This document shows, one piece after another, positions 727 through 32,160 of a stretch of 32,309 bases of DNA (its first letter is position 1; each line of letters opens with the position of its first letter). Where the stretch lies: assembly GCA_043819795.1 (NCBI GenBank), contig JBDREN010000208.1, forward strand, positions 1 to 32,309, given 5' to 3'. The position numbers were made by a program, and so were the translations under genes. Origin of the DNA: Elusimicrobiota bacterium. GTDB lineage: Bacteria; Elusimicrobiota; Elusimicrobia; UBA1565. The notes below the pieces were generated by a model. That model saw only the letters and a program-made list of their open reading frames with translations, was not told where the DNA came from and did no database searches.

Positions 727-745
727 AGGAGTCTTCGAGGAAGCT

Positions 746-3700
746 ATGACGAACGCGGATAAACACTTTCTTGCGGCGAAGAAGAAGCACGAGGAGCGCT
801 TCGGCGACCAGATCGTCGTGGGCCTGGACCAGCTTACGCCGATCGACGCCAAGCATTGGGGCGGCTACTGCATGTGGCGGGTGCTGTGGTACGACCCGTA
901 CCGCCACGGCCGCGCCGTATTCGACCTCGATAAGGTCCTCGCCCAGCGGCCGCGGGACGTCGAGGCCCTGGCCCTGCGCGGCCGGATCCGCCGGATCCTG
1001 GGCGATCTCAAGGGGGCGCTGGGAGATTTTAAGAAGGCGCTGACGATCAGCCCCAACCACGCCTACGCCCGGGCCGCCTTGGCCGAGACCAAGATGGCCT
1101 GCGGCGAGCAGACCTCGGGGATGCAGGAGTTCGCGCGCGCCGAGAAGGCGGACCCGAAGCTGCTTTGGACCTACATCTGGCGCGCCTCCTGGGAGATGAG
1201 CGAGGAGGACCTCGAGGGAGCGGAGCGGGACGTCGCCATCGCCCGCGGGATGGGGCACGAGACCGTCATCGAGTACATCCTCGAGGGACTGCTCGCCATG
1301 AGGCGCCGGCAGTACAAGAAGGCCATCGACATCTACCGCCGCGCCAACAAGATGGACCCCGAGTCCCCCGGGGTCGTGATCATGCAGGGCGAGGCGAAGC
1401 TGCGCTCGGGCGACGAGAAGGGCGCGGGCGAGCTCTACGAGCGGGCCATCGTGATGGACCACGACTGCAAGGTGTCCTATCACACCTTCCTCGACTGCGG
1501 GGAGCCCCCGCAGGACGAGAGGGGGCTCAAGATCTTCGACGAGGCGCTCAAGAAGCGCCCGAAGGCCGCGTGGCTCTACGGCCTGCGCAGTGAGATCCTG
1601 CGCATGCCCAAGCTCGCGGCCTACCGCGAGTCCGTCTACGACCTGGAGAAGGCCGTGGAGCTCGCGCCCAAGAGCTCATGGCTGATGTCGTTTCTCGGGC
1701 GCGGCTACGCCCAGACCGGCCGGCTGGAGAAAGGGGTGGAATGCCTCAACAAGGCCGTGGAGCTCGACCCCAAGTGCGGCTGGGTGATCGCCTGGCGCGG
1801 GGAGGCCCTGCGCATCATGGGCGACCTCAAGCAGGCTATCAGCGACTTGACCGCCTCGATCCGGTTGGAGCGGCGCTACATGTACGCCTACCCGTGGCGG
1901 GGCGGGATCTTCCGCCTGCTCGAGCGCGTGGACGACGCCCTCGACGACCTCGATGCCGGCATGGACCTGCACCCCCGCTACCACCACACCTACCACCAGC
2001 GGGCCATCGCCAGGCTCTACGCGGGGATGGGCAAGCTCGCCATGCAGGACATGGAGCAGGCGGCGCGTTACCTGCCCAAGTACGCCTTCATCATGGGGCG
2101 CCTCAAGGGGCGCGAGAAGGAGTCGGCGCGCATCATGCGCGGGCTCGGCGAGGCGGTCAAGAAGAACCCCCGCGACGCCCGGCCCCTGGCCTGGCGCGGC
2201 GAGTCGCTGATGAAGCTCGGCGACTGGGAGGGCGCGGTCAAGGACCTTACGGCCGCGCTCAAGCGCGACCCCGAGATGGGCTGGGCCCACGCCTGGCGCG
2301 GGGAGGCGAACTTCAAGCTGGGACGCTGGGCCGGCGCGCTCGCCGACCTCGAGGAGGCGACGCGTCTCGACTCGACGTATCACCGCGCCTGGGCGTTTCG
2401 GGGCGCCGCGCTCTACCGGCTCGGGCGCCACAAGGAGGCCATCGAGGCGCTCGACATGTCCATGAAGCTCGACACGCGCTCGGCGTGGGCGTGGGCCTGG
2501 CGCGGCGAGGTCAAGCTGCGGCTCGGCGACTTCGAGGGCGCTCTCGCCGACGTGGACAAGGCCCTGAACTTCGAGATGAACTTCGTGGAGGCGCTCGTCT
2601 GGCGCGGCGACGCGCTCAAGGGCCTGGGCCGCTTCGAGGAGGCCATGACCGCGGTGAACCGGGCTCTGGAGCTCAACCCCGACCACGCGATCGGCTACAT
2701 CACGCGGGCGCTCATCAAGGAGAAGCTCGGCGACTTCTTCGGGGAGATGCTCGACTTCGCGCGCGCGCTGAAGAGCTCCCCCGACCTCCTCGACAAGTCC
2801 GCCCGGGAGACCCTTCGCGGGCAGCTTCTGGCCACGGCCGCCAAGGCGCTCGACGCGGGCGACGACAAGACCGCGCTCACGGCCGCCGAGGCCCTGGCCG
2901 GCATCGATCCGGAATGCGCGCAGGCCCATGCGGCGGTGTGCGAGGCCAAGCGCCGGCTCAAGGAAGAAGGCGCGCTGGAGGCGCTGGACAAGGCCCACGC
3001 GGGCAACGAGTACGGCGTGTGGTGCTACCTGGCCGGTCAATGGGAGAGCTTCGAGGACCTGTTCGGCCGGTTCGAGAGCGGGCCCGGCGGCCTGGGCCAG
3101 CGGACGATCCTGGGGCCGGACACCTACGAGCGCATCCTTTCGGAGACCGATCGTCTCATGAAGGGAGCGGAGGCCCGCGCCTGGGTCCACGGCCTTCGGG
3201 GGGAGGCCCGCTTCAAGACAGGGGACCTGGCCGGAGCCGTCGACGATTTGACCCGAGCGCTGAAGGCGCGGCCGGAGGACGCGAAGGCCTTGGCCTGGCG
3301 CGGCGAGGCGCGCTACTGGCGGGGGGACCGGAAAGGGGCCCTCGCCGACTTCGACAAGGCGGTCGCGCTCGAGCCCGGGTCGGCGTGGGCGCTGGCCTGG
3401 CGGGGCCAGCTCAAGCTTTGGATGGGACGCTACAAGGACGCGGCGAAGGACTTCACCGCGGCCCTCAAGCGCGACCCCAAGCACGCCTGGTCCTACGGCT
3501 GGCGCGGAGCGAGCAGGATGTGCCAGGGCGACATCCGGAAGGCTTTGCCGGACCTGGACCGCGCGCTCAAGCTCGATCCGCGCGACGTGGAGGCCCGGGT
3601 GTGGCGCGGCGAGGCGTACCGGCTGCTCGGCAAGCACGAGCGGGCCCTGACGGACCTCGACGAGGCGGTCCGGCTCTCGCCCGGGCAGTTCTGGGCGTTG

Positions 3701-3889
3701 CTCAACCGCTTCCTGGCCAACCAGGCGCTGGGCCGGAGCGACCAGGCCCGCCGCGACCTCGCCTCGGCGTCGCGGATCGGGAACGGGCGCAGGCTGCCCG
3801 GAAAGGACATGAAACAGGCCGCGGCCGCGGCCGAGCGGATGCTGGCGGAGGCCCGGGGAAGCCGGACCGAACCCGGCGTAGGAGCATGA
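746..3889 (+). CDS. Large Trp-rich TPR protein (TPR-A1), 1047 aa
   Basis: Start moved from 377 to ATG 746 (MTNADKHF): GAGGA lies just upstream and the homology to TPR-A2 begins here. Many ~34-aa repeats such as AWAWRGEVKLRLGDFEGALADVDKALNFE. No signal peptide. Confidence 0.9.
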   Translation: MTNADKHFLAAKKKHEERFGDQIVVGLDQLTPIDAKHWGGYCMWRVLWYDPYRHGRAVFDLDKVLAQRPRDVEALALRGRIRRILGDLKGALGDFKKALTISPNHAYARAALAETKMACGEQTSGMQEFARAEKADPKLLWTYIWRASWEMSEEDLEGAERDVAIARGMGHETVIEYILEGLLAMRRRQYKKAIDIYRRANKMDPESPGVVIMQGEAKLRSGDEKGAGELYERAIVMDHDCKVSYHTFLDCGEPPQDERGLKIFDEALKKRPKAAWLYGLRSEILRMPKLAAYRESVYDLEKAVELAPKSSWLMSFLGRGYAQTGRLEKGVECLNKAVELDPKCGWVIAWRGEALRIMGDLKQAISDLTASIRLERRYMYAYPWRGGIFRLLERVDDALDDLDAGMDLHPRYHHTYHQRAIARLYAGMGKLAMQDMEQAARYLPKYAFIMGRLKGREKESARIMRGLGEAVKKNPRDARPLAWRGESLMKLGDWEGAVKDLTAALKRDPEMGWAHAWRGEANFKLGRWAGALADLEEATRLDSTYHRAWAFRGAALYRLGRHKEAIEALDMSMKLDTRSAWAWAWRGEVKLRLGDFEGALADVDKALNFEMNFVEALVWRGDALKGLGRFEEAMTAVNRALELNPDHAIGYITRALIKEKLGDFFGEMLDFARALKSSPDLLDKSARETLRGQLLATAAKALDAGDDKTALTAAEALAGIDPECAQAHAAVCEAKRRLKEEGALEALDKAHAGNEYGVWCYLAGQWESFEDLFGRFESGPGGLGQRTILGPDTYERILSETDRLMKGAEARAWVHGLRGEARFKTGDLAGAVDDLTRALKARPEDAKALAWRGEARYWRGDRKGALADFDKAVALEPGSAWALAWRGQLKLWMGRYKDAAKDFTAALKRDPKHAWSYGWRGASRMCQGDIRKALPDLDRALKLDPRDVEARVWRGEAYRLLGKHERALTDLDEAVRLSPGQFWALLNRFLANQALGRSDQARRDLASASRIGNGRRLPGKDMKQAAAAAERMLAEARGSRTEPGVGA

Positions 3890-6114
3890 TCATGGGGAAA
3901 AAGAGAAAGAAGTCTGCGGAGCTCAAGGCGGTGGAGCGTAAGCTCATGGCGCGCGGCGTCTTCGGCACGGCCGCGTACCTCCCGGACGTCCTCAACCTGG
4001 ACCAGAGGCTGTATCTGGGATACACGATACCGCACGGCCAGCAGTACGACCTGGGCCGCTACGACGCGGAGCTGGAGGTCCTCAACCGGCTCATCAAGAG
4101 GTCGCCCAACGACGCGCGGCCCTTCGCGCTGCGGGGCAGGATCCGGCGCCACTTGATGCGCAAGCATGACGCCCTCGCGGACCTCGACCGGGCCGTGGAG
4201 CTGGACCCGGAGGACGCCCAGTCCTACGGGTGGCGCGGCGAGCTGTTGCTGGCCCTGGGCCGCTTCAACCTGGGCATGCAGGACCTGGAGAACGCCCGGA
4301 ACCTGGACCCCAAGTGGGTCTGGCCGTATATATGGGCCGCGATCGGCTGGCTGCTCCGCAACGAGATCGAGCCCAGCCTGGAGCTTCTCGATAAGGCGCT
4401 GCGGATCGATCCGGACTGCGGCTTGGCCCTCATACTGCGGGGCCGGGTGCGCCTGCAGCAAAAGAAGCCGCAGGAGGCGTACCCCGACCTCAAGCGCGCG
4501 ACCGAGCTCGACCCCAAGTGCATCGCGGCCCACGGATGCAAGGGCGTGGCGCTGGCGGCCATGGGGGACACCGAAGGGGCCGTGGCGGCGTTCACCGACG
4601 CGACCTACCTCGAGCCCGACGCGAAGACCTTTCACGACATCCTGATCTCCCACGACGGCCTGCTGGAGAACAGCCGGGAGTCGCTCGAGAAGCTCAACGC
4701 CTACATCAAGAAGCATCCCAAGGCCGCGTGGGCCTACACCCTTCGCGGCGACCTCATTCGCAACGCGCGTTTCGGCCGCTACGAGGACGGCATCAAGGAC
4801 CACCTGAAGGCAACGAGCCTCGAGCCCCATAAGTCGTGGCTCTGGGCGTGCCTCGCGCGCGCGCGCATCCAGTATTTCTACGTCAAAGAAGGGCTCAAGG
4901 ACATGGAGAAGGCCTGCGAGATCGATCCCGAATGCCCGTGGCTGCTCATGTGGCTGGGTGAGTCCAGGAGGCGCGACGGACAGTTCCGGGCGGCCATCAA
5001 GGACTTCAACGACACCATCAAGATGCAGCCGGACCTGCCCATGGTCTGGCTGTGGCGGGGCCGCATCCACAACGAGAAGGGGCGCTACCATCTGGCCATC
5101 AAGGACTTCGACCAGGCCATCCGCCTGGACCCGGCCTACGGGTACGCCTACGCCAAGCGGGGCGAGTCCCTGATGAATCTCGAGCGCTACCACGAAGCCG
5201 TGCGCGAATTCGATTGGGCGCTCAACACCCGCCTGCCCAACAACCATGAATGGGTGTTCGGGATGCGCGCGCGGGCCCGCTACGAGACGGGCGACTATCT
5301 GGGGATGTTCGAGGACATCTCCCGGACGCTAAAGCGGGACATCAAGCTCTGCTGGTTCCCGCTCGAGTACACGGCGAGCGTGGAGGACCCTAAGTGCTGG
5401 GAGATCCACCAGACGATCAGCGAGGCCCTGGCCCAGGACTCGAACGCCACCTGGCTCTACGGCTGGCGGGGCGCGGTCAAGCTGGCGCTGAACAAGCCCC
5501 TGGAAGGCGCGGCGGACCTGAGCCTCGCGATCCAGTGCGCCCCCACCTTCGCCTGGCCTCACGCCTGGCGCGGGCGCCTGTACTGGCAGACGGGCCGCAT
5601 GAAGGAAGCGGAGCGCGATCTGAAGGAAGCCGCGCGGCTCGACCCCACGTGCTCCTGGATCCACGGCTGGCTGGCCGAGCTCTACGTGACGTGCGGCGCG
5701 TTCCGGCAGGCCGTCGACGAGGCCACCACGGCGCTGCAGCTGTGGCCCAAGCTCGTGGACGCCTACTACGTCCGCGGGGAGGCCCTGCGCTGCCTCAAGC
5801 GCTACGATGAGGCCAAGCTGGACCTCGGCCGGGCCATCGCGATGAACCACCACCACAAGCTCGCCTTCGTCAGCCGGGCCATCCTGCACGGGGAGACCGG
5901 GGACCACCAGGCCCAGATCCAGGACTTCCGCCGGCTGGCGCAGTTCGCCCCCGAGATGCTCCGCAAGACCCTGGACCAGCTCGAGGTCATCGGCGGCAAC
6001 GCTAGGGTGAAGGTCACCCTCGAGCAGATACTGATGCAGGGGTCCGTGGCCACGCCGCCCGGGTTCGGAGGCAGGGAGCAGGCGGGCCAGCCCCCAAGGG
6101 GAGGAAGGGTATGA
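3886..6114 (+). CDS. Trp-rich TPR protein (TPR-B1), about 742 aa
   Basis: Start moved from 1678 to ATG 3886, an ATGA overlap with the upstream stop. ATG 3892 is an alternative, better spaced from AGGAG 3880-3884. Tandem TPRs, colinear with 16654-18867. Confidence 0.9.
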   Translation: MIMGKKRKKSAELKAVERKLMARGVFGTAAYLPDVLNLDQRLYLGYTIPHGQQYDLGRYDAELEVLNRLIKRSPNDARPFALRGRIRRHLMRKHDALADLDRAVELDPEDAQSYGWRGELLLALGRFNLGMQDLENARNLDPKWVWPYIWAAIGWLLRNEIEPSLELLDKALRIDPDCGLALILRGRVRLQQKKPQEAYPDLKRATELDPKCIAAHGCKGVALAAMGDTEGAVAAFTDATYLEPDAKTFHDILISHDGLLENSRESLEKLNAYIKKHPKAAWAYTLRGDLIRNARFGRYEDGIKDHLKATSLEPHKSWLWACLARARIQYFYVKEGLKDMEKACEIDPECPWLLMWLGESRRRDGQFRAAIKDFNDTIKMQPDLPMVWLWRGRIHNEKGRYHLAIKDFDQAIRLDPAYGYAYAKRGESLMNLERYHEAVREFDWALNTRLPNNHEWVFGMRARARYETGDYLGMFEDISRTLKRDIKLCWFPLEYTASVEDPKCWEIHQTISEALAQDSNATWLYGWRGAVKLALNKPLEGAADLSLAIQCAPTFAWPHAWRGRLYWQTGRMKEAERDLKEAARLDPTCSWIHGWLAELYVTCGAFRQAVDEATTALQLWPKLVDAYYVRGEALRCLKRYDEAKLDLGRAIAMNHHHKLAFVSRAILHGETGDHQAQIQDFRRLAQFAPEMLRKTLDQLEVIGGNARVKVTLEQILMQGSVATPPGFGGREQAGQPPRGGRV

Positions 6115-8513
6115 GGCCTTCGCAAGAGCTCGCACGGATCGTCGGCGCCTCGCGCGTCTCGACGGCGCCCGACGTCATCACGGAGTTCTCCCGCGACTTC
6201 GCGGGCCACGACCTGGGCCGGGCGATCGCGGTCGTGCGGCCGGCCACCGAGCAGCACGTGGTCCAGCTCGTCCAGTGGGCGCGCAGGACCAAGATCCCGC
6301 TGGTCGCGGTCGGCTCGCGCTCGAGCTTCTGGGCCGCCACGAAGGTGGGCGGGCGCGTGGCGGTGGACGTGCGCGGCATGACCAAGGTGATCAACATCGA
6401 TAAGACCGAGCTCATCCTGCGCGCGCAGGGCGGCATCCAGCTGGCCGACCTCGACGACATGCTCCGCGCGCAGGGGCTGTGCCTGCCGATGGTGCCCGAC
6501 GGCTTCGGCGACCCCGTGATCGCCACGTTGGTGAGCAATAACGCCATCACCGGGCTCGGCATGTTCGGCGGCGGGATCTCGCCCATGATCGTCTCGGCCA
6601 ACATCGTGCTGGGGACCGGGGAGGTCCTGAAGGCGGGGTCGTCCTCCGCGGTCTCGGGGCTGCATGACTTCGCCCGCAACGGCCTTCCCGACCTGCTGGG
6701 CCTCTTCTTCACTTCCGAGGGCGCGCTCGGGATCATCACCGAGCTGTCCATGCGCTTCGCGCCCGTCCCGGAGACCCGCACGCTGGCCATGAGCTTCGAG
6801 CCCTGCCTGGAGAACTACCGCAGGGCGAAGTCCGCGGTGATGTCTTTGCGCGGCGAGGATACCGTCTCGTACTGGCGCAACCACTCCTGGATCTCGGGGG
6901 ACCCCGACACCGTGGAGATCCAGGTGACGGGAAAGCCGGAGGAGATGGGCGCAAAGGTCCGCCGGCTGCAGCGGGTCTGCCGGGACCACGGCCTGCAGGA
7001 GCCCCAGCTGCTCCTCAACGAGCCTCCGCGCTGGGAGGAGCGCCCACTTAATAAGGAAAATTGGATGGGCTGCTCCATGCATTTCCCCTACGCGAACGCG
7101 GAGAAGCTCTATTCCATCTGGCTCAATTACATGCGGCCCCGCATGTCCGTCTTCGCGTCGCCCGACGGCTTTCTGAGGAACTACTTCAGCGCGGCCGGCG
7201 TGGCGGGCCTGTTCGCTTGGAACTACCGGGACGGCGAGCCCATGGAGTCGGCCAGCAGGGCCCTGGCGCGCGAGGCGCGCAAGCGCATGGCGCCGCTGGG
7301 CATCCCGTACCGCGTCGGGACGGCGTGGCGGCCCATCCTGGAGCGGCGGCTCGATCCCCTGTATTGCCGTCTTCTCGAGCGGCTCAAGAATATGTTCGAT
7401 CCGGACAACATCCTGAACCCGAACGTGGGATCTTTCGGAATAGCGCCCGCGCCGGCCAACGGCGCGCGTCCCGCGCGCAAGGCCGCCAAGCCCATCGAGC
7501 CTCGCGCCGAGGTCCAGGGCTATCCGCTCCGGCGGCCCTCCGGTACGTTCCGGACCGGCCGGCCCATGGGCACGGGGCTGGAAGCCCTGCTGCGCGAGCA
7601 GTACAAGTCCGAGAAGAGCGGGAAGGGGGGGCCAGCGGTGTCCAAGCCGGGACGCCCGGCCCTGCCTCCGGAGAGCTGGACCGAAGGACAGAGAGAGCCC
7701 CGGAGGCCCGCTCAGCGGCCCGCCCGGGCTCGGGCCCGGACGCTTCCCATGGAGGAAGGGGGCAGGCCCACCTTCCAGGCGCTTTTGGAGAGCAGGCTGG
7801 CCGAGAAGGACGTGCTCCCGGGCCAGCGGCCCCGCGCCGCGCGTCCGGCCAAGGCTCCGGCGCGCGCCCGGCGCGCCAAGACGGGACCGGCCGGCGAGCT
7901 CGAGCGTCCGGAAAAAGAGCCGATGCTGCCGGCTCCCATCGCGGCCGTCCCTCCGGCGGCCCGGCCTCCGTATAAGGTCGCGGTTGAGGACGATCTGGCG
8001 AGCGAGGTCCCCAGCCCGGCAAGGCGGCCCGCCCCGGCCCGGCGTAAACCGGCTCGCGGTCCCGCCCGGAAGGCGGCCACGGGGCGGGTCCGTTCAAAAC
8101 CCTCGCCTAAGCCGGTCGAGGAGACTGCGCTTCCCCCGATGCCGGGCTATTACGAGGAGAGGAAGCTGTTCGGCGGGGTCGCGCGTCCCTCCGCGCCCGA
8201 GCCGGCAAAGCTTCCGGCGGGCAAGCCTCGCCGTCCGGCGCCCGCCAAGGCGCGTCCCAAGGCCGCCAAGCGAGCCGTGCGTGAGCCGTCGAAGCGGCCC
8301 TCCATGTTCGTGCGCCTAGGCGGGGGCGACGGGGCCTCCCGTCCCGCGCCGGTCAAGCCGGCGGTCAAGGCGCCGCGTCCGCGCAAGGCCGCGAAGCGCG
8401 CGCGGCGCCAGAAGGCCGGGACCGGCGAGAAGATGCTCGATCGCCTCTGGGTCTTGATGACCGGGCATCACATCAAGACCCGCCGCAAGAGCCGCCGGAG
8501 GAAGCGCCGGTGA
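6111..8513 (+). CDS. FAD-binding oxidoreductase (FAD_binding_4 / VAO-PCMH fold) with ~355-aa basic low-complexity C-terminal tail (FAD-1)
   Basis: Motifs AVVRPATEQHV, VAVDVRGMTKVI, VLGTGEVL, SEGALGIITE and LKNMFDPDNILNP. ATGA overlap with TPR-B1. P/A/R/K-rich tail after about 7440. Substrate unknown. Confidence 0.88.
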   Translation: MRPSQELARIVGASRVSTAPDVITEFSRDFAGHDLGRAIAVVRPATEQHVVQLVQWARRTKIPLVAVGSRSSFWAATKVGGRVAVDVRGMTKVINIDKTELILRAQGGIQLADLDDMLRAQGLCLPMVPDGFGDPVIATLVSNNAITGLGMFGGGISPMIVSANIVLGTGEVLKAGSSSAVSGLHDFARNGLPDLLGLFFTSEGALGIITELSMRFAPVPETRTLAMSFEPCLENYRRAKSAVMSLRGEDTVSYWRNHSWISGDPDTVEIQVTGKPEEMGAKVRRLQRVCRDHGLQEPQLLLNEPPRWEERPLNKENWMGCSMHFPYANAEKLYSIWLNYMRPRMSVFASPDGFLRNYFSAAGVAGLFAWNYRDGEPMESASRALAREARKRMAPLGIPYRVGTAWRPILERRLDPLYCRLLERLKNMFDPDNILNPNVGSFGIAPAPANGARPARKAAKPIEPRAEVQGYPLRRPSGTFRTGRPMGTGLEALLREQYKSEKSGKGGPAVSKPGRPALPPESWTEGQREPRRPAQRPARARARTLPMEEGGRPTFQALLESRLAEKDVLPGQRPRAARPAKAPARARRAKTGPAGELERPEKEPMLPAPIAAVPPAARPPYKVAVEDDLASEVPSPARRPAPARRKPARGPARKAATGRVRSKPSPKPVEETALPPMPGYYEERKLFGGVARPSAPEPAKLPAGKPRRPAPAKARPKAAKRAVREPSKRPSMFVRLGGGDGASRPAPVKPAVKAPRPRKAAKRARRQKAGTGEKMLDRLWVLMTGHHIKTRRKSRRRKRR

Positions 8514-12360: not shown

Positions 12361-12389
12361 AGGGATCAGGACGTCGACGGGCACGCAAG

Positions 12390-12436
12390 ACGCATAAAAC
12401 GGTAGAATAATTCGATATCCGAATAGGGGAGGGAGC
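12390..12436 (+). promoter_or_regulatory. Putative internal promoter (-10 TAGAAT) and RBS for TPR-E
   Basis: The largest intergenic gap in the TPR cluster (78 bp) and AT-rich. TAGAAT at 12403-12408, ATTCG-N5-CGAAT at 12410-12424, then AGGGGGAGGGAG. No canonical -35. Confidence 0.45.
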
Positions 12437-12438
12437 AC

Positions 12439-14268
12439 ATGAGCACCATGACCAGCGCGAGGCGAGTGTCCGGGAAAGGAGGCGCGGTCCAAAGGGACCG
12501 GCGGGACGCGCCGGTGGACCGGGCTCAGGACGTGGATCTTTCGACCAACGGGTGGCTCGACCACGCCCGGAAGGCGGCCTACTACGTGGAGCCGCGCGCG
12601 GGCTGGGTCTACGCGTGGAGGGACTACGTGATCCCGGACCCGACGGAGCACCTTCGGCTGCGCGCGACCCTGCGCCGCGTGGTGGGACGCGGCACCGCGA
12701 ACGCCGAACTGTGGTCCTACCTCGGCGAGATCGAGCGCAAGCTCGACAACCCGCAGGAGGCCATGCGCTGCTTCGACAAGGCGCTCAAGCTCGACCCCTC
12801 CTTCGGCCCGGCCTACGCTTGGAAGGGAGAGGCTCTGCGCGACATCCAGCGCTACGATGAAGGACGCGCCGCTTTGGAGCGCGCGGCGAAACTGATGCCG
12901 AGGGAGCCGTGGGTGCTGGCTTTGCTCGCGCGGGCAAACGGGGACTTCAGGCCGGCGCACCTGCACTACTCGCTGCCCATCTTCGCCAAGGCGATCGCCC
13001 TGGCCCCCAAGGCCGGCTGGATCCGCGCCTGGCGCGGGGAGGCCTGGCGGCGGCTCAAGAAGCACAAGGAGGCGCTCAAGGACTACACCTTCGCCGCGAA
13101 GCACGGCTCGCCTCTTTCGTGGACCGTCATGTGCCGGGGTGAGGTGTACCGGAAGCTCAGGCGGATGGACCTCGCGGAGAGGGACTACCGGCTGGCCGAG
13201 CGCATGGACCCGAACAACCCCTGGATTCCCGTGGCGCGCAGCGAGGTCTGCCGTACGGAGCGCAGGTTCGAGGACGCGATCAAGCACCTGAAGGACGCCG
13301 TCCGCCTGAGCGGCAAGGCGGCCTGGGCCTACGGGATGCTGGGCCGCGTGGAGTTCGTCTACGCCTACCCGAAGGAAGGCCTGGAGGATATGAGCCGTTC
13401 GATACGCATGAAGCCCTTGGGCTGGTGCGTGGCGTGGCGCGGCGAGGCGTACCGGCACCTGGGCCAACTCAAGAAGGCCCTGGCCGACCTGACCTGGGGG
13501 CTCAAGCTCGATCCCGACTACGGCTGGACCTGGGCGTGGCGGGGCGGCACGCGCCGCCGGCTGGGCGACCTGAAGGGGGCGATGGAGGACCTCAACGAGT
13601 GCGCCAGGGCGTACACGTTCTATCCGTGGGTGTTCTCAGAGAGGGCGCTGGTCAAGCGCGCGATGGGGGACCTCCCGGGCGCCTTCGACGACATGGAGGA
13701 GGCCATCCACCGGGACCAGAAGTATTTCTGGATCCAGCATCCGTCCCAGGAGAAAGAGGGGCTGAGCTGTCTGGAGCGCTACCTCAAGAAGCGCCCGCGT
13801 GACGCGCGCGGGGTCTCGTGGTACGCCCAGGCCCTGACCCAGGCCAAGCGCATGGAGGAGGCTCTGGAGAACTTCGAGCGCGCCGAGAAGCTTCTCAAGG
13901 GGAAGACGACCGAGTTCCACGGTTGGATGCTGACCTGGTGGGCGGAGGCCCTGTTCCGGGCCGGACGGGGACGCGAGGCCCTGCCGAAGGTCCAGCAGGC
14001 TCTGCGCCTGGCGCCGAAGTACATGCACGCGCACGCCTGGCACGGGCGGATCCTGGCGACTTTGGGCAAGCTGAAGGAAGGTCGCAAGGCGCTTGAGAAG
14101 TCGCTCAAGATCTTCCCGCGCACGGCGTGGGCGTGGGCGTGGCTGGCCGAGGTGACGGTGGCTCTCGGCGACCGCAAAGCCGCGGCGTACGCCGTGGACC
14201 AGGCGTTGATGGTGGAACCGAACTACGTGTTCGCCAAAGAGCTCAAGGCGTTCATCGAGAAGCTGTGA
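12439..14268 (+). CDS. Trp-rich TPR protein (TPR-E), 609 aa
   Basis: Strong RBS and clear TPRs (YLGEIERKLDNPQEAMRCFDKALKLDPSFGPAYAWKGE). Confidence 0.9.
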   Translation: MSTMTSARRVSGKGGAVQRDRRDAPVDRAQDVDLSTNGWLDHARKAAYYVEPRAGWVYAWRDYVIPDPTEHLRLRATLRRVVGRGTANAELWSYLGEIERKLDNPQEAMRCFDKALKLDPSFGPAYAWKGEALRDIQRYDEGRAALERAAKLMPREPWVLALLARANGDFRPAHLHYSLPIFAKAIALAPKAGWIRAWRGEAWRRLKKHKEALKDYTFAAKHGSPLSWTVMCRGEVYRKLRRMDLAERDYRLAERMDPNNPWIPVARSEVCRTERRFEDAIKHLKDAVRLSGKAAWAYGMLGRVEFVYAYPKEGLEDMSRSIRMKPLGWCVAWRGEAYRHLGQLKKALADLTWGLKLDPDYGWTWAWRGGTRRRLGDLKGAMEDLNECARAYTFYPWVFSERALVKRAMGDLPGAFDDMEEAIHRDQKYFWIQHPSQEKEGLSCLERYLKKRPRDARGVSWYAQALTQAKRMEEALENFERAEKLLKGKTTEFHGWMLTWWAEALFRAGRGREALPKVQQALRLAPKYMHAHAWHGRILATLGKLKEGRKALEKSLKIFPRTAWAWAWLAEVTVALGDRKAAAYAVDQALMVEPNYVFAKELKAFIEKL

Positions 14269-16637
14269 AGAGCGCGAACAAGCGCCTCCTCGCCGCGAAG
14301 CGCAAGTGGCTGGATTACCGCATGGACCAGATCGTCATGGGTCTGGACCAGCTCACGGCGGTCGACGCCGCGGACTGGTCCGGCTACGCCATGTGGCGGC
14401 CGCTGGCCGTGGACCCGCACCGCTTCGGCGGCGTGGTCTTCGATCTCGACAAGGCGCTGGAGAAGGCGCCCGAGGACGTCGAGGCCCTGGCCATGCGCGG
14501 CCGGGCGCTCCGGATCGTGGGCGACTTCAAAGGCGCCCTGGCCGACCTGAGGCGCGCGCTCGAGCTGCGTCCCGACGACGGATACGCCCGGGCCTGCCTG
14601 GGCGAGCTGAGGCTCGCCATGGGCGAGGAGGGACAGGCGGCCGACGCCTTCTCCCGCGCCGAGCGGGGCGACCCGGACATGATCTGGACCTATGTCTGGC
14701 GCGGGGCGTGGGCGTTGCTCAAGGGCGACCTGACCCAGGCGGGCAAGGACCTGGAGACCCTGCGGGTGATCGGCGAGGAGAAGGTCGTCATCAACCTGCT
14801 CGCGGGCGTGCTCTCGACGAAGCTGAGGGACTTCAAGGAGGCCATCCGGCTTTTCGACCGGGCAGCTGTTATTGACTCGCATTGCGGAGGGACCCTCGTG
14901 ATGCGCGGGCACTCGCGCCTGTGGGACGGCGACGAGAAGGGCGCGGCCGCGGACTACGAGGAGGCCATCCGCTTCGACCACGACTGCAAAGTGGGCTACT
15001 ACCAGATCATCGGCTGCGGGGACCTGGAGCCCACCGCGAAGGATCTCGCGTTTCTCGATGGGGCGATCCGCAAGCGTCCGGACGCGGCCTGGCTCTACGG
15101 CCTGCGCAGCGAGATCCTGCGGATGCCGAAGCTCTCGCTCTACCTCGACTCGGTCAAGGACCTCGAGAAGGCCGTGGAGCTCGATCCCAAAAGTCCCTGG
15201 CTCATGGCGTTTTTGGGGCGCGGGTATGCCCAGACCGGCCAGCCGGAGAGAGGGGTGGAGTGCCTCTATAAGGCTGTGAAGCTGGACCCGACTTGCGGAT
15301 GGGTCATCGCCTGGCGCGGCGAGGCGGTACGGATAGCCGGGAAGTTCAAGGAGGCTATCGACGACCTGACGAAGGCCATCAAGTACGAGCCGTACTACAT
15401 GTACTCCTACGTCTGGCGGGGCGGGCTCTACCGCCTAATGGAGCGGGAGCGCGAGGCCCTGGCCGACCTGGACTTCGCCATGACTCTGCACCCCCGCTAT
15501 CCGCACGGCTACCATCAGCGGGCGTTCGCGCGGCTCTACGCGGGCATGGGCAAGGAAGCGATGGAGGATATGGCCCAGGCGGTCCGCTTCAACCCGAAGT
15601 ACAGCTGGGTGCACGGGAAGCTGGCGGGTCGCGAGAAGGAGTGGCGGCGCGTCTTGAAGGGGCTCGATACGGCCGTGGCCCAGGAAAAGAAGGGCGGCTG
15701 GCCCCTGGCCTGGCGCGGTGAGGCGAGGCTCAAGCTCGGCGACTGGGAAGGGGCTTTGGAGGATCTGGCCGCCGCGGTGAAGCGGGACCCCAAGCTGGCG
15801 TGGGGCTGGGCCTGGCTCGGTGAGACCAAGATCAAGCTCGGGAAGGCGGGCTCGGCCCTGCCGGACCTGCAGAAGGCGACGCAGCTCGACCCGACCTACG
15901 CCCGCGCGTGGTCCTGGAAGGGCGCGGCCCTCTCGCGGCTGGGGCGCTGCCCCCTGGCCCTCGAGGCGTTCAACGAGGCGATGCGTCTGGATCCGCGCTC
16001 GGCGTGGGCGTGGGGCTGGCGCGGCGAGGTGAAGCTGCGGGTCCAGGACTTCGAGGGCGCGCTCAAGGACCTGGACAAGGCCCTCACCTTCGACCTTCGT
16101 TTCGTCGAGGCGCATATGTGGCGCGGCGAGGCGCTCGCGGGACTGGGCCGCTTCGAGGACGCGATCGTCGCGATCGACCGGGCCCTGGAGTTCAACCCGG
16201 AGCACGCCATGGCCTACGTGACGCGGGCTTTGGCCAAGGAGAAGCTCGGCGATTTCTTCGGGGAGATGCTCGACTTCGCCCGGGCGCTCAAGTTCATGCC
16301 CGAGCTGATGGACAAGACCGCTCGCGAGCGGCTGAGCGAGCAGCTGATGGAGCGGGTCGCCGAGAAGCTCGAATCGGGCGATCCGACGGCGGCTCTCGAG
16401 GCCGCGGAGGCGGTGCTCGGCTTCGATCCCGGCAACGCGGACGCGCAGGCCGTGGTCCGCGATACGAAACGTTCCTCGAAAGACGGAGGCTCGCGCCGGA
16501 CCCGGCCCAAGGGGTCTCGGCACGGCTCCGCTCCGCGGTCGAAGCCGTCCCGCGAGCCCGTTCCGGCCGGCCGCGCGTCGAGGCGCAAGCCGGCGCGCCT
16601 TAGCGCGCCGGTGATCCGGCTGCGCCCGAGGAGTTGA
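14265..16637 (+). CDS. Trp-rich TPR protein (TPR-A2), paralog of 746-3889, 790 aa
   Basis: Start moved from 14127 to GTG 14265 (GTGA overlap). Shares identical blocks with TPR-A1, e.g. AAWLYGLRSEILRMPKL and EKLGDFFGEMLDFARALK. Confidence 0.9.
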   Translation: MKSANKRLLAAKRKWLDYRMDQIVMGLDQLTAVDAADWSGYAMWRPLAVDPHRFGGVVFDLDKALEKAPEDVEALAMRGRALRIVGDFKGALADLRRALELRPDDGYARACLGELRLAMGEEGQAADAFSRAERGDPDMIWTYVWRGAWALLKGDLTQAGKDLETLRVIGEEKVVINLLAGVLSTKLRDFKEAIRLFDRAAVIDSHCGGTLVMRGHSRLWDGDEKGAAADYEEAIRFDHDCKVGYYQIIGCGDLEPTAKDLAFLDGAIRKRPDAAWLYGLRSEILRMPKLSLYLDSVKDLEKAVELDPKSPWLMAFLGRGYAQTGQPERGVECLYKAVKLDPTCGWVIAWRGEAVRIAGKFKEAIDDLTKAIKYEPYYMYSYVWRGGLYRLMEREREALADLDFAMTLHPRYPHGYHQRAFARLYAGMGKEAMEDMAQAVRFNPKYSWVHGKLAGREKEWRRVLKGLDTAVAQEKKGGWPLAWRGEARLKLGDWEGALEDLAAAVKRDPKLAWGWAWLGETKIKLGKAGSALPDLQKATQLDPTYARAWSWKGAALSRLGRCPLALEAFNEAMRLDPRSAWAWGWRGEVKLRVQDFEGALKDLDKALTFDLRFVEAHMWRGEALAGLGRFEDAIVAIDRALEFNPEHAMAYVTRALAKEKLGDFFGEMLDFARALKFMPELMDKTARERLSEQLMERVAEKLESGDPTAALEAAEAVLGFDPGNADAQAVVRDTKRSSKDGGSRRTRPKGSRHGSAPRSKPSREPVPAGRASRRKPARLSAPVIRLRPRS

Positions 16638-16653
16638 TCGGGAGGAGCTTGAG

Positions 16654-18867
16654 ATGAAGAGGAACAAGCGGATGCCGCCGGAGCTGCTCGCGATCGAGCG
16701 CAGGCTCAAGACGCTCGGCTACGAGGACAAGATCGCGGGGCTGCCCGCCATCCTCAACGTGGAGCAGAAGTACTTCTTCCCGTACGCCCTTCCTTTGGGC
16801 CAGCACTACGACCCGGACCGCCACGAGGAGGCGCTGGTCCTTCTCGACCGCTACGTCGCCGGAGCGCCGGACGACGCGCGGGCGCTGGCGCTCCGGGGAC
16901 GGATACTGCGGCTCTTGAGCCGCAAGGACGACGCCCTGGAGGACCTCGACGAGTCGCTCGACCTGGACCCGCAGGACGCGCAGGCCATGGGGTGGCGCGG
17001 GGAGCTGCTGACCCACATGGGGAAGAGCGACCTCGGCCTGGGCGACCTCGAGACCGCGGTCGGCATCGCGCCGGGCTGGATATGGCCGTATCTTTGGATG
17101 GCGGTCTGCCAGCTCACCCGCAACGAGGCCGACCTGGGGGTCGAGACCCTCGATAGGGCGCTCGCCGTGGACCCGCGCTGCGTCCCGGCCTACCTGCTGC
17201 GCGGGCGCGTGCGGTTGGAGGAGAAGAAGACGGGCGAGGCCCTGGCCGACTTCGAGGAGGCGGTGCGCCTAGACCCTCTGTGCACGGGAGCTCTCGTCCT
17301 GAAGAGCCGGGCGCTGGCCGCCGCCGGCGACATCAAGGGCTCCGCCCGGGCGATCTTCGAGGCGACGCGCCTGGAGCCCGACGCGAAGACGTTCTACTCC
17401 GAGCTGATCTCGGGCGCCGGGCCCCTCGAGAACAGCGAGCAGTCGCTCAAGAAGCTCGACGACTTCATCAAGCGCCACCCCAAAGCGGGCTGGGCCCACG
17501 CCCTGCGCGGGGACATGCTGCGCATGGCGGTCTTCGGGCGCGTGGAGGAGGGGATCGAGGAGCTCAAGGCCGCGGCCAAGCTCGAGCCGAAGACTCCCTG
17601 GATCCGCGCCTGCCTCGGCCGCGCGCGCATGCAGTACTTCTTCGTCAAGGAAGGGCTCAAGGACCTCGAGAAGGCCGCGCAGATGGACCCCAAGTGCGCC
17701 TGGCTGCGCATGTGGAACGCCGAGGCGAAGCGCCGCGCCAAGCTCTTCGACGAGGCCCGCAAGGACTTCTCGGCCGCCGCCCGGATGGCTCCGGGCATGC
17801 CCGAGCCCCGCATGTGGCTGGGGCGCCTGCACTGCGACAAGAAGCAGTACGCGAGCGCCATCCCGGAGTTCTCCCGCGCGGTACGGCTGGACCCGGCCTA
17901 CGGGTACGCCTACGCGAGGCGGGGCGAGGCGTTCTTCGCTTTGAAGCGCTACGACGAGGCCGTGCTCGACTTCGACCGGGCGCTGAACCTGAAGCTTCTG
18001 GGATACGAGGACGAGGTGTGGGCCCTGCGGGCGCGGGCCAATTACCTCATCGGCGACTACCTGGGCGCGTTCTCGGACCTGGCCCAGGCGATCCGCCGGG
18101 ACATCAAGCGATGCTGGTTCCCGCTCGAGTACGGCGGCACGGCGATCGATCCGAAATGCTGGGGTGTGCTCGAGTCGCTCAACGACGCCATCGCGCAGAA
18201 CCCGAACGCGGGCTGGCTCTACGCCTGGCGCGGGGCCGTGAAGCTGGCGGTCGAGAAGCCCACCGACGGTGAGCAGGACCTGGACCTCTGCATCCGGATC
18301 CAGCCCAACTTCGCCTGGGCCCGCGGCTGGCGCGGGCGCCTGCACTGGCAGACGGGCCGCGCGGAGAGCGCCGCGGCCGATCTCGACGAGGCGTTGCGGA
18401 TGGACCCGCAGTGCGCGTGGCTGTGGATCTGGCGGGCGGAGCTGCGCATCTCGCTCGGAGCCTACAAAGAAGCGGTCGAGGACGCCGAGCGCGCTCTGGG
18501 GCTGTCGCTGGAGACGGCCGACGCGTACTTCGTCCGCGGGGAGGCGCTGCGGCGCCTCAAGCGCCATCAGGAGGCGAAGGCGGACCTGGACCGCGCGATC
18601 AAGGCCAACCCGCGGCATCGCTTCGCGTTCGCCAGCCGCGGCATGCTCTGCGGCGAGATGGGCGACACCGAGGGCCAGGTGGAGGACTTCCGCCGCGTGG
18701 CCCAGCTCGCCCCGGACCTGTTCCGCAAGACGGTCGAGGCCCTGGGCTCGTTCGAGGGGGCCCAGGAGATGGAGGACCTGGTCCGCCAGATCATGACGCC
18801 GGATCCCGAGCCAGCTCCGGGCGGGATGGGCGAGCTGGCGATGACCGGCGACGAGATCCCCCAATAG
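16654..18867 (+). CDS. Trp-rich TPR protein (TPR-B2), paralog of 3886-6114, 737 aa
   Basis: GGGAGGAG RBS. Shares blocks with TPR-B1: LEPDAKTF, QYF(Y/F)VKEGLKD, LDPAYGYAYA, RDIK.CWFPLEY. Confidence 0.92.
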   Translation: MKRNKRMPPELLAIERRLKTLGYEDKIAGLPAILNVEQKYFFPYALPLGQHYDPDRHEEALVLLDRYVAGAPDDARALALRGRILRLLSRKDDALEDLDESLDLDPQDAQAMGWRGELLTHMGKSDLGLGDLETAVGIAPGWIWPYLWMAVCQLTRNEADLGVETLDRALAVDPRCVPAYLLRGRVRLEEKKTGEALADFEEAVRLDPLCTGALVLKSRALAAAGDIKGSARAIFEATRLEPDAKTFYSELISGAGPLENSEQSLKKLDDFIKRHPKAGWAHALRGDMLRMAVFGRVEEGIEELKAAAKLEPKTPWIRACLGRARMQYFFVKEGLKDLEKAAQMDPKCAWLRMWNAEAKRRAKLFDEARKDFSAAARMAPGMPEPRMWLGRLHCDKKQYASAIPEFSRAVRLDPAYGYAYARRGEAFFALKRYDEAVLDFDRALNLKLLGYEDEVWALRARANYLIGDYLGAFSDLAQAIRRDIKRCWFPLEYGGTAIDPKCWGVLESLNDAIAQNPNAGWLYAWRGAVKLAVEKPTDGEQDLDLCIRIQPNFAWARGWRGRLHWQTGRAESAAADLDEALRMDPQCAWLWIWRAELRISLGAYKEAVEDAERALGLSLETADAYFVRGEALRRLKRHQEAKADLDRAIKANPRHRFAFASRGMLCGEMGDTEGQVEDFRRVAQLAPDLFRKTVEALGSFEGAQEMEDLVRQIMTPDPEPAPGGMGELAMTGDEIPQ

Positions 18868-18884
18868 GGTACGAGGAGACGACG

Positions 18885-19454
18885 ATGGCGAAGAAGGCCC
18901 GAAAGAAGGGCGTCCGGAAAAAGAAGGCGTCACCGTTCGACGGAACGATTTTGCCGCCGATCCCGCGCATCACCATACCCCGGGAGGTGCGCGAGGCCTT
19001 GCCGGAGCCCGTGGATCCCCGGCTCAAGGCATGGGCCGAGCAGGCCGAGGTCGAGGTCATCCGGGACCGGATCGGGTTCGACGTGAGCAAGGAGGTCACC
19101 CACTTCTCTCGCAACCTGGGCCTCAGCGGGGAGCAGAAGAGGCGGGTGACCCTCCACATGTCGGCCAAGAACCGTCTGCTGAGGGAACACGCCACGGTCC
19201 GCCGGGCGCACCGGGAGAAGACCTTCGCGCTGCACAGGCAGATCCTGGCCCTCAACCGCAAGTTCGACAAGATGCTCAAGCGCATGGAGGTCGAGGAGGA
19301 CGAGGTCCAGGCGCGCGTCCGCAAGGAGCTCCGGCCGGACCAAAAGAAGCAGTACGACCTGCTGCTGCAGGAGCGCGACCGCATCGAGAAGGAGTGGCTC
19401 CGCTCCTACGAGAAGCGGGTCAGGGAGCTGCCGCCTCCGCGCGGAAACGTATAG
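18885..19454 (+). CDS. Hypothetical helical protein, 189 aa, with two LTxxQ-like motifs (Spy/CpxP-like)
   Basis: Start moved from 18411 to ATG 18885 (GAGGAG upstream). Basic N-terminus, Pro-rich segment, then LGLSGEQKRRV and LRPDQKKQY flanking a charged helix. The CDS is well supported; the family call is tentative. Confidence 0.7.
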   Translation: MAKKARKKGVRKKKASPFDGTILPPIPRITIPREVREALPEPVDPRLKAWAEQAEVEVIRDRIGFDVSKEVTHFSRNLGLSGEQKRRVTLHMSAKNRLLREHATVRRAHREKTFALHRQILALNRKFDKMLKRMEVEEDEVQARVRKELRPDQKKQYDLLLQERDRIEKEWLRSYEKRVRELPPPRGNV

Positions 19455-21017
19455 GTGAGCGTCCAATCGGAGCTCTCGCGCTTGGCGCCGCGCGGGCGCG
19501 TGGTCTTTTCAAGCGAAGGGCTCAGATACTACGCTTCCGATTTCGCCGGCCACGCCTGCGGCAGGGCGCTCGCCGCGGTCCGTCCCGTCTCGATCGAGGA
19601 GGTCGCGGCCCTGGTGCGATGGGCGCGGCGCCGCCGGATCCCCCTGGTCCCGGCGGGCTCTTTGACCAGCTTCTGGGGCAACATGAACGCGGGCGGCGCC
19701 GTCATCGTGGACATGCGCGGCATGTCGCGGCTGGTCGCCTTCGACGAGGCCGAGCGCACCGTGACCGTGGAGGCCGGCATGAGCGTCGCGGCTCTCGACC
19801 GCGCCCTGCGCGCCAAGGGCTTCTGCCTGCCCGTCTCCCCCACCGGCTTCGGGGCCGCGACCGTCGCTTCCATGGTGGCCAACGACACGAACGCCGGGCA
19901 CGGGATGTTCTCCGGCGATGTGGCGCCGCACCTGGTGGGCCTGACCGCGGTGCTGGGCACCGGGGAGGTCCTCCGGACCGGGGGCTCGGCCCTGCCGCCG
20001 GAGCTGCCCCGGTTCTCGCGCGCCGGGCTTCCCGATCTCGCGGGGCTGTTCCTGGCCTCGGAGGGGGCTTTGGGGATCATCACGGAGCTCGTGCTGCGCG
20101 TGCCCCCGGCCCCGCGGGTCCGCGCCTTCGAGCTGCGAGTCCCGCGGGACGTCGAGTCCTTCGAGCGCGTCGTGGCCGCGGCGCAGGCCGTGCGCGGCGG
20201 GATGCTGTGCCATTCCTGGATCCACGAGAGCTCGACGACGTCTCAGCCGGACGTGTCGCACATCCAGATCGCGGGTTACGGCTCCGGCGAGGAGCTCGAG
20301 GCCAAGCGCCTCTATCTGGCCCAGGCGTTGCGCGCCAACGGCCTTCCGCCCGCCCGGGCGCTCCGGGAGCCTCCCTCCATGTGGTTTTATCCGAAGGCCC
20401 AGCCGCGGGGGGAGGAAGGCCCGCGCCAGGCCACGAGATGGAAGGGGGTGGCGTTCGATCTTCCCTACGCGCGCGCGGTGAGGGCTTACTCGCTCTGGCA
20501 GCAGCGGCTGCGGCGGGACGTCGCGCGGCTCGCCCTGCCGAAAGGCGGGCTTCAGACCTACTTCGGGCGCGAGGCCGTTCTGGCGCTGCCCTGGTGGCTG
20601 CACTCGACGGAGGCCGGAGAGGAGCGGGCGCGCGAGCTCGAGACGAGGTTCCGCGAGGTCCTGGGCCCGCTGGGCGTGCCGTACCGGCTGGGAACGGACG
20701 TCGGCTCCCGGTTCGCGGAGCGCCTCGACCCGTCGTACCGCGAGGCCCTGGGCGCGGTTAAGCGCTGGTTCGACCCCGACGGCGTCCTGAACCCCGGCGT
20801 CGGCGTGTTCGCGGCTGCGGCCCGGAAGGGCCGCAGTGCCGGGAAAAGAATCCCGCGATCGGGCGCCGCAAAGGCGGCGGCCCGGCAGTGCCGCAGTGCC
20901 CGGCCGCCTAAGGCAGGCGTTGCGGTCCGTGGTGCAGTGGCCCGGCAGGGCCGCAGTGCCCGGCCGCCTAAGGCAGGCGTTGCGGTCCGTGGTGCGGCGA
21001 GCCGCCGCCGGCGCTGA
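19455..21017 (+). CDS. FAD-binding oxidoreductase (FAD_binding_4 / VAO-PCMH fold), paralog of 6111-8513 (FAD-2)
   Basis: GTG directly abuts the upstream TAG. Motifs DFAGH..GRA, VIVDMRGMSRL, VLGTGEVL, GLPDLAGLFLASEGALGIITEL and VKRWFDPDGVLNP. Confidence 0.88.
   Translation: MSVQSELSRLAPRGRVVFSSEGLRYYASDFAGHACGRALAAVRPVSIEEVAALVRWARRRRIPLVPAGSLTSFWGNMNAGGAVIVDMRGMSRLVAFDEAERTVTVEAGMSVAALDRALRAKGFCLPVSPTGFGAATVASMVANDTNAGHGMFSGDVAPHLVGLTAVLGTGEVLRTGGSALPPELPRFSRAGLPDLAGLFLASEGALGIITELVLRVPPAPRVRAFELRVPRDVESFERVVAAAQAVRGGMLCHSWIHESSTTSQPDVSHIQIAGYGSGEELEAKRLYLAQALRANGLPPARALREPPSMWFYPKAQPRGEEGPRQATRWKGVAFDLPYARAVRAYSLWQQRLRRDVARLALPKGGLQTYFGREAVLALPWWLHSTEAGEERARELETRFREVLGPLGVPYRLGTDVGSRFAERLDPSYREALGAVKRWFDPDGVLNPGVGVFAAAARKGRSAGKRIPRSGAAKAAARQCRSARPPKAGVAVRGAVARQGRSARPPKAGVAVRGAASRRRR
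20880..20995 (+). repeat. In-frame 60-bp tandem repeat, two near-identical copies plus a degenerate copy at about 20820-20840
   Basis: GCCCGGCAG(T/G)GCCGCAGTGCCCGGCCGCCTAAGGCAGGCGTTGCGGTCCGTGGTGC starts at 20880 and 20940. It encodes ARQ(C/G)RSARPPKAGVAVRGA twice. Confidence 0.95.
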
Positions 21018-22731: not shown

Positions 22732-22744
22732 GGGGGCGGGACGG

Positions 22745-32155: not shown

Positions 32156-32160
32156 CCCCG

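Follow-up and report, generated by a model that had tools for sequence, protein, structure and literature searches.

Among the closest described counterparts of the locus considered here is the HXS antiphage system, which, in its published survey, is made up of HxsD, HxsB, HxsC and HxsA in this order, with HxsB and HxsC maturing the protein effector HxsA, and is found in Pseudomonadota in 99.7% of cases (PMC13128918). Our locus lies in a 32,309-base stretch of DNA from an Elusimicrobiota bacterium (hereafter the window), which is the entire contig JBDREN010000208.1 (C208) of a metagenome-assembled genome of 4.99 Mb in 241 contigs (GCA_043819795.1; 90% complete, 1.1% contamination). It is an array of eight genes coding solely for tetratricopeptide repeats (TPR) and two genes for VAO/PCMH-type flavoproteins with a PF01565 domain, in which two TPR genes, A and B, and a flavoprotein gene, FAD, occur twice in the same order, as A1-B1-FAD1 and as A2-B2-FAD2, with a small gene, S, between B2 and FAD2 (Table 1). 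The original prediction was that A-B-FAD is a functional unit present in two diverged copies; we find that this three-gene-module reading holds only in part, and that what looks like a module is probably one larger tandem duplication seen out of register.

The likeness to HXS systems is found on a second contig of the same genome, C32, which carries Hxs-like genes in the order D, B, C, one HxsB among them above its family cut-off. The difference is that the C32 HxsC and HxsD remain below theirs, and that the place of HxsA is taken by a Trp-halogenase-family flavoprotein (HAL), a protein of ~310 aa that we call unk, and a third flavoprotein gene, FAD3. The window is tied to this gene set by synteny in relatives, where HAL-unk-FAD precedes T3-T4-T0·T5 in the genome G001 (T0 and T5 being one gene there), and not by a single contig. 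As to the flavoproteins themselves, the best PDB matches of a structural model of FAD2 are mouse LDHD, human D2HGDH, LctD and vanillyl-alcohol oxidases (template modelling (TM) scores of 0.70-0.74), but the window proteins share only ~20% identity with these, their sequence matches are limited to the FAD domain, and they carry basic, disordered tails. With the sets of enzymes that tailor aromatic natural products or ribosomally synthesised and post-translationally modified peptides (RiPPs), such as flavin-dependent halogenases or QhpG/LodB-type monooxygenases, ABBA prenyltransferases (e.g., PagF or LimF) and radical SAM/SPASM maturases, the system has in common HAL, unk (the model of which matches only ABBA prenyltransferases), SPASM-type maturases upstream and, in relatives, an aKG-HExxH (α-ketoglutarate) hydroxylase downstream; it differs in that no precursor peptide was identified and that the only curated equivalogs reached are HxsB and the HExxH domain, and we know of no described tailoring cluster with a run of TPR-only proteins of 500-1050 aa. 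The TPR proteins, finally, find their best, partial NCBIfam matches in the scaffolds PrsT, BcsC, MamA and PilW and consist wholly of TPR repeats, but all named equivalogs stay below cut-off (e.g., PrsT with 221 bits against 312).

All six starts proposed for the two copies open real, uninterrupted reading frames. A1 and A2 are 57.7% identical over 743 aa (residues 1-743 in both), B1 and B2 51.0% over 726 aa (BLASTP, E = 0 in either case), and FAD1 and FAD2 38.8% over 520 aa (E = 2e-105); all three alignments are collinear end to end and the genes are intact, as had been claimed. The A-A and B-B pairings are specific and do not reflect generic TPR similarity, because A and B are just 27-30% identical to each other, and 22-34% to the window's other five TPR genes. 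A and B are therefore two old subfamilies, and each carries its own conserved non-repeat motifs at the N-terminus and in mid-protein. The motifs that had been listed for A (at residue 21 in both copies) and for FAD (at residue 29 in both) are exactly as written, while that for B, at residues 484 of B1 and 482 of B2, is present with a spacing of five residues, not three, between PLEY and DPKCW.

In phylogenetic trees of 24 rows, A1 and A2 are sisters with support of 100/100 and B1 and B2 with 97/98, and in both trees the window pair adjoins the clade of genomes G001 and G015 (81/79 for A, 98/99 for B), so that the two topologies are congruent with each other. The identity between A1 and A2 (58%) exceeds the identities to A orthologues (44-50%; A1 and the A of G004, for instance, are 50% identical over 1027 aa), and B2 shares 55-59% of its residues with B orthologues and 51% with B1. 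A1/A2 and B1/B2 are true diverged duplicates that arose in this lineage and were kept intact by selection. Maximum-likelihood estimates under the GY94-F3x4 codon model give ω values (dN/dS) of 0.075 for A1/A2 (dN 0.29, dS 3.8), 0.049 for B1/B2 (dN 0.34, dS 6.8), 0.07 for FAD1/FAD3 (dN 0.25, dS 3.6) and 0.013 for FAD1/FAD2 (dN 0.50, dS 38), that is, purifying selection on all pairs, in line with the selection proposed at the outset for the two copies of A and B. Since dS is saturated (>3), these values convey constraint and a rank order of ages, and no dates. Nei-Gojobori ω values of 0.5-0.7 were discarded as biased by a GC content of ~90% at third codon positions (GC3). Evolution after the duplication was asymmetric: a C-terminal extension of ~260 aa, present in A1, in the A of G001, G004 and G434 and in the protein P0037, was lost from A2, and the end branch of B1 measures 0.75 against 0.28 for B2 (24-row tree).

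The flavoproteins do not follow this pattern. The genome's third copy, FAD3, is the last gene at the 3' end of C32. It shares 61% identity with FAD1 and 40% with FAD2, and in an 18-row tree it is the sister of FAD1 (100/99), with FAD2 apart and weakly grouped with the protein P0004 and the copy of genome G050. A clade of FAD1 and FAD2 is rejected (ΔlnL 89; approximately unbiased (AU) test, p-AU 4e-62), and the monophyly of all three copies is a borderline rejection (p 0.045). FAD2 is moreover closer to orthologues in other genomes (43-50% identity) than to FAD1 (~40%), the opposite of what is seen for A, and its position after S has no counterpart in any relative. FAD2 is an older or separately acquired paralogue. 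The trees of A and B are consistent with one another and with FAD1/FAD3 as a pair, not with FAD1/FAD2; of the congruence between A, B and FAD trees that a common history of the module entails, the part concerning A and B stands and the part concerning FAD does not.

Gene order in relatives points the same way. Homologues of FAD are present in 6 of 61 relatives (the window's genome included) and in 5 of 401 genomes sampled from the phylum, and B orthologues in 6 of 101 genomes belonging to the order; A orthologues were found in G001, G004, G015 and G434. Of the family's 16 other genomes, three have both FAD and A, one has only FAD, none has only A and twelve have neither, counts in which kin are not independent. 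Further searches retrieved only distant relatives of FAD from genome contigs (28-36% identity) and, with B as query, two metagenome loci, L055 and L054, the latter with the same matches as the contig of G004. A lies directly upstream of B in three of the six other B contexts (G004, G015 and G434), which supports A-B as a conserved adjacent pair. FAD, by comparison, follows B in none of these six (the remaining three being G001, G019 and L055), and a match to A or B precedes FAD in none of the six FAD contexts compared. Every relative has one A, one B and one FAD, and the search for genomes with more copies returned only the window's own; the order A-B-FAD was found in no other genome. What lies directly upstream of FAD is instead unk, in C32, G001, G004 and G015 (45-65% identity), preceded by HAL in C32 and G001, with HAL also upstream of FAD in G010 and G050; directly after FAD lie T3 orthologues, in G001 (48% identity over 754 aa) and in G004 (48% over 256 aa). 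What lies downstream of B in relatives is an aKG-HExxH peptide beta-hydroxylase, which in G015 scores 90.7 bits in TIGR04267 (cut-off 40) and has a homologue of 69% identity in G001, together with two Spy/LTXXQ-like proteins whose N-termini resemble signal peptides.

These observations make it very unlikely that A-B-FAD was copied once as a functional unit, whose copies would then have taken on different substrates or assembled into a hetero-oligomer. Such a history would explain why the same order is seen twice and why all six genes are intact and constrained, and, as B1 overlaps FAD1 and S abuts FAD2, each FAD would be translated with its upstream TPR genes. It is contradicted by the sister relationship of FAD1 and FAD3 with the rejection of FAD1+FAD2, by the fact that A1/A2 are closer than A orthologues while FAD1/FAD2 are more distant than FAD2 and its orthologues, and by the gene order at the A, B and FAD loci of other genomes; an incongruent FAD tree and the absence of the order elsewhere are also what the original prediction had itself named as grounds for giving up the module.

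The comparison with G001 offers a different account. On a single strand of a single contig, this genome has the order HAL-unk-FAD-T3-T4-T0·T5-x-TPR-A, in which residues 1-216 of one open reading frame correspond to residues 1-222 of T0 and residues 218-794 to residues 27-602 of T5 (T0 is 43% identical to G001 over 219 aa, and T4 45% to its orthologue there). Because of this mapping, the 11.6-kb block A1-B1-FAD1-T3-T4 of the window falls exactly between the two halves of one G001 gene. We favour, at a probability of about one half, an origin of A1/A2, B1/B2 and FAD1/FAD3 in a single tandem duplication of a ~13-kb segment, FAD-T3-T4-T0·T5-A-B, with FAD2 as the older paralogue. The duplication would have created the new junction B1|FAD1; unit 1 would then have lost the T5 part, giving the junction T0|A1, and unit 2 the T0 part, giving the junction T4|T5, of which the 78-nt spacer at 12361-12438 may be the scar. 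In this scheme, unit 1 would begin with FAD3, placing C32 upstream of C208; both copies of A, B and FAD would have been retained, and T0, T5 and possibly also T3 and T4 would have reverted to a single copy. As collinear pairs of closest-relative paralogues, the genes have what is expected of a tandem segmental duplication, and the three sister pairs show similar divergence (58%, 51% and 61% identity for A1/A2, B1/B2 and FAD1/FAD3). FAD3 has also kept the ancestral upstream neighbours (four radical SAM genes, HAL and unk), which FAD1 and FAD2 have not, and C32 breaks where the low-complexity basic tail of FAD3 begins; low-complexity tails are hard to assemble.

Several points weigh against this account. 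C32 and C208 have no end overlap, and the contigs of public sequencing runs are too fragmented to bridge them, so that their adjacency is only inferred; two such runs cover parts of positions 1-3000 of the window in contigs of 150-450 bases at a depth of 3-5, which neither bridge nor refute it. No second copies of T3 and T4 were found in the 90%-complete assembly, and they would have been lost from unit 1 or left unassembled. The model requires three events, one duplication and two losses. The saturation of dS lets the ages of the pairs be ranked only, so that equal age is not measurable; the B1 branch is 2.7 times longer than that of B2; the support for B1+B2 was merely 72/62 in an earlier 20-row tree; and the backbone of the FAD tree is unresolved, with the monophyly of the three copies rejected only at the borderline value given above. 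Finally, A and B are 41 kb apart in G001 and B is solitary in G019 and in the metagenome locus L055, so the TPR genes are not obligately linked. On the G001 contig concerned (C43; loci L029, L051 and L100), the 2.4 kb after A have a lower GC3 and may represent an insertion by which the A-B pair was disrupted.

Some of the same evidence would fit a history of independent events, in which a local duplication of A-B came first and, separately, a FAD3 copy (alone or together with T3-T4) went in between the two pairs and split T0·T5. T3 and T4 paralogues were not found outside the window, the block between T0 and T5 resembles an insertion relative to G001, and B1/B2 seem older than A1/A2 (dS 6.8 against 3.8). 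We consider this course possible, though on the unlikely side: the inserted block would need two non-adjacent sources, A-B and FAD-T3-T4, its gene order is precisely that expected at a tandem-array junction, and FAD1/FAD3 and A1/A2 are nearly equal in divergence.

An old duplication of A, B and FAD, of the depth of FAD1/FAD2, masked by later partial gene conversion of A and B, is highly improbable. The identity between A1 and A2 is indeed uneven, with 17-41 identical positions per 50-residue block, but there is no near-identical tract, the best A1/A2 block reaching 41/50 and B1/B2 being flat at 16-31/50; conversion would also leave unexplained both FAD3 and the failure of FAD2 to group with FAD1. 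That the copies come from two related populations, joined in one contig by assembly or binning, we hold to be scarcely credible: the genome is fragmented, its contamination is 1.1% and depth in the public runs is low, but copies of 51-58% identity are far below strain or species variation, GC content and the codon-position signal are uniform across the array, the intervening genes are orthologous to those of G001 and ordered as there, and genes overlap across the junctions of the array.

The tandem duplication that we favour thus concerns an array whose layout is summarised in Table 1. The window has a GC content of ~70%, the names carried by its homologues point to Elusimicrobiota, all genes from base 1 to ~23,400 lie on the plus strand, and stop-start overlaps of the form ATGA or GTGA mark five junctions (A1/B1, B1/FAD1, FAD1/T3, T3/T4 and T5/A2). 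T0, A1, B1, T3, T4, T5, A2 and B2 match TPR_1, TPR_2, TPR_11 and other TPR families far above the Pfam cut-offs. The histidine kinase and response regulator genes that follow FAD2 yielded no matches when the B and FAD loci of relatives were examined, and the remainder of the window, from 23.4 to 32.3 kb, is of housekeeping type, with an isochorismatase-like hydrolase, a glycerol-3-phosphate-oxidase-like flavoprotein and a class I fumarase. The spacer between T4 and T5 could possibly hold an internal promoter that divides the array into T0...T4 and T5...response regulator; a consensus promoter scan did not flag it, and promoter and terminator scans gave nothing convincing in the intergenic gaps. 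A terminator-like hairpin with a T-run lies on the plus strand at 19477-19510, 22 nt inside the coding region of FAD2; because the region is conserved as protein, it may be due to chance, or else be an attenuator. At the contig end, the last 150 bases (32160-32309) have 25-mers in common with contig C133 (plus strand, offset ~31,600), which may be an overlap of contig ends.

Table 1. Genes and other features of the array in the window, with coordinates counted from its first base.
Feature	Coordinates	Strand	Description
T0	1..726	+	Open at contig start; C-terminal 241 aa of a TPR protein; Pfam TPR matches
A1	746..3889	+	1047-aa TPR protein, full-length A type including the C-terminal extension
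B1	3886..6114	+	742-aa TPR protein; ATG overlaps the A1 stop (ATGA); fast-evolving B copy
FAD1	6111..8513	+	VAO/PCMH-type flavoprotein (residues 1-~470) plus 300-aa tail; start overlaps the B1 stop
T3	8510..10819	+	769-aa TPR protein
T4	10816..12360	+	514-aa TPR protein; start re-set to GTG 10816 (ribosome-binding site; overlaps the T3 stop)
Spacer T4-T5	12361..12438	.	78 nt, AT-richer, contains TAGAAT; by far the longest intergenic gap of the array
T5	12439..14268	+	609-aa TPR protein
A2	14265..16637	+	790-aa TPR protein, A-type copy without the C-terminal extension
B2	16654..18867	+	737-aa TPR protein, conservative B copy
S	18885..19454	+	189-aa basic helical protein; GGAGGAG ribosome-binding site; coding-type GC3
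FAD2	19455..21017	+	520-aa VAO/PCMH-type flavoprotein, older paralogue
Histidine kinase (HisKA_3/HATPase, Cache-like sensor) and LuxR-type response regulator	21028..23395	+	After FAD2

The small gene S, whose existence had been predicted correctly, encodes a protein distantly related to LTXXQ/Spy-like periplasmic proteins, the genes for which lie after B in G001, G004 and G015. It has no Pfam or NCBIfam matches, and its N-terminus is rich in Lys and Arg, not hydrophobic and without a signal peptide, while the homologues of G004 and G015 start with typical signal peptides and that of G015 passes the cut-off of PF07813 (25.4 bits against 24.3). Assignment of S to the LTXXQ/Spy-CpxP family, for which we looked for a PF07813 match above cut-off and a signal peptide, was not retained.

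FAD1, FAD2 and FAD3 are VAO/PCMH flavoproteins by their matches to PF01565 (FAD_binding_4; 85.4, 103.2 and 89.8 bits, respectively, against a cut-off of 26.4) and, for FAD2, by the two-domain VAO fold of its structural model (predicted local distance difference test (pLDDT) score of 80). Their subfamily is tiny: among 1.84 billion proteins, seven representatives score above 360 bits, followed by a drop to 279 bits, and the next-nearest relatives bear generic names. The site of D-2-hydroxyacid dehydrogenases has conserved catalytic or metal-binding histidines; an alignment of 13 sequences of the FAD family contains no invariant histidine. Membership in the GlcD/D-lactate dehydrogenase equivalog was rejected by score, FAD1 and FAD2 reaching 69.4 and 93.9 bits in TIGR00387 against a cut-off of 567.9. 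A FAD_binding_4 listing for the protein P0025 was likewise set aside as a spurious match of 31 residues within TPR repeats. The tail of FAD1 (7611-8513) is 300 aa of low-complexity sequence rich in Pro, Ala, Arg and Lys; that of FAD2 (20820-21017) is shorter, basic, and contains a 60-bp tandem duplication (20879-20995; copies 98% identical) that must be recent and whose unit has no other copies in the genome.

The gene set around FAD3 (C32:28000-42926, corresponding to positions 1-14927 of locus L013) comprises an HxsD-like gene, two HxsB-like and three HxsC/HxsC4-like radical SAM genes, HAL, unk and FAD3. One of the two HxsB-like proteins scores 479.6 bits in TIGR03978 (cut-off 370), whereas the HxsC and HxsD candidates could not be accepted as members of their families (147.7 against 267.9 bits and 33 against 50). 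The best match to HxsA (TIGR03979), on contig C23, has 36.5 bits against a cut-off of 121.65, and none of 14 cluster proteins is enriched in His-Xaa-Ser. Between the HxsB and HxsC-like genes of C32 lies an open reading frame of 365 aa with a signal-peptide-like start and 15 cysteines, a candidate substrate.

HAL matches PF04820 with 140 bits and CmlS, QhpG and LodB below cut-off. Its partnership with the flavoprotein is echoed by P0078, a 1032-aa fusion of a HAL and a VAO-type FAD protein, whose N-terminus is 31% identical to the C32 HAL over 377 aa (E 8e-43). For unk, which has no Pfam or NCBIfam matches, the structural model shows an alpha-beta-beta-alpha pattern at low confidence (pLDDT 62.5); the 35 rows listed from the first 50 ranks of a Foldseek search are all ABBA prenyltransferases, among them PagF, LimF and PatF, which act on peptides (TM scores 0.37-0.50), and the ESM Atlas gives the same lead (0.93-0.94). 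On the basis of this model, unk is a probable ABBA aromatic prenyltransferase. The C-terminal 280 aa of P0075 were considered as a relative of unk and dismissed (E 0.48, not significant). In two other Elusimicrobia proteins, P0034 and P0041, ~900 aa of TPR are fused to a C-terminal radical SAM domain. PADLOC returned only generic TPR and radical SAM matches for the cluster and no defence family.

The position beside HxsB/HxsC-like radical SAM enzymes suggests that the cluster modifies peptides or proteins. The VAO-type flavoenzyme, together with HAL and unk and downstream of the HxsB/HxsC-like maturases, might serve as the tailoring oxidase of an aromatic residue in a peptide or protein. The TPR proteins, which would be cytoplasmic and among which A and B likely form a heteromeric pair, might hold the substrate or the enzymes. 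We read the two roles in this way because of the neighbours, the gene fusions and the lack of signals at the N-termini inspected, no hydrophobic N-terminal signal being seen by eye in A1, A2, B1, B2, T3 and T5. Two points count against such a functional picture: no substrate peptide was identified, and the prenyltransferase lead for unk comes from a model of low confidence (pLDDT 62, TM scores 0.37-0.50). A more specific proposal appears doubtful to us: the TPR array and the three flavoenzymes would be the substrate-handling arm of a non-canonical Hxs-type radical SAM maturation system with HxsA replaced, in which giant cytoplasmic TPR proteins would present a peptide or protein to the radical SAM, halogenase-like, prenyltransferase-like and VAO-type enzymes for modification, and the retention of precisely A, B and FAD in duplicate would identify these as members of one stoichiometric complex. 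Literature searches on Elusimicrobia TPR and radical SAM proteins and on His-Xaa-Ser systems did not find this cluster described, and the words TPR, tetratricopeptide, halogenase and FAD have no occurrences in the main text of a preprint on groundwater Elusimicrobia (10.1101/765248).

The duplication as such is ordinary; the cluster in which it occurred is rare. Its history illustrates that a gene order repeated within one contig of a fragmented metagenome-assembled genome can mislead on the unit of duplication. At the same time, the duplication is a marker of those genes in a long, unannotated operon that were kept in step, namely A, B and the flavoenzyme, and it connects a series of TPR-only proteins with a very rare subfamily of VAO-type flavoenzymes whose conserved partners, supported by a gene fusion, are HAL, unk and the HxsB/HxsC-like maturases. 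Should the cluster indeed act on peptides or proteins, it would be related to HXS but lack HxsA, and would occur in a phylum from which the published survey has almost no such systems; and if the proposal of a substrate-handling arm were true, it would represent a new class of RiPP-like, possibly defence, system, so far confined to a few Elusimicrobiota.

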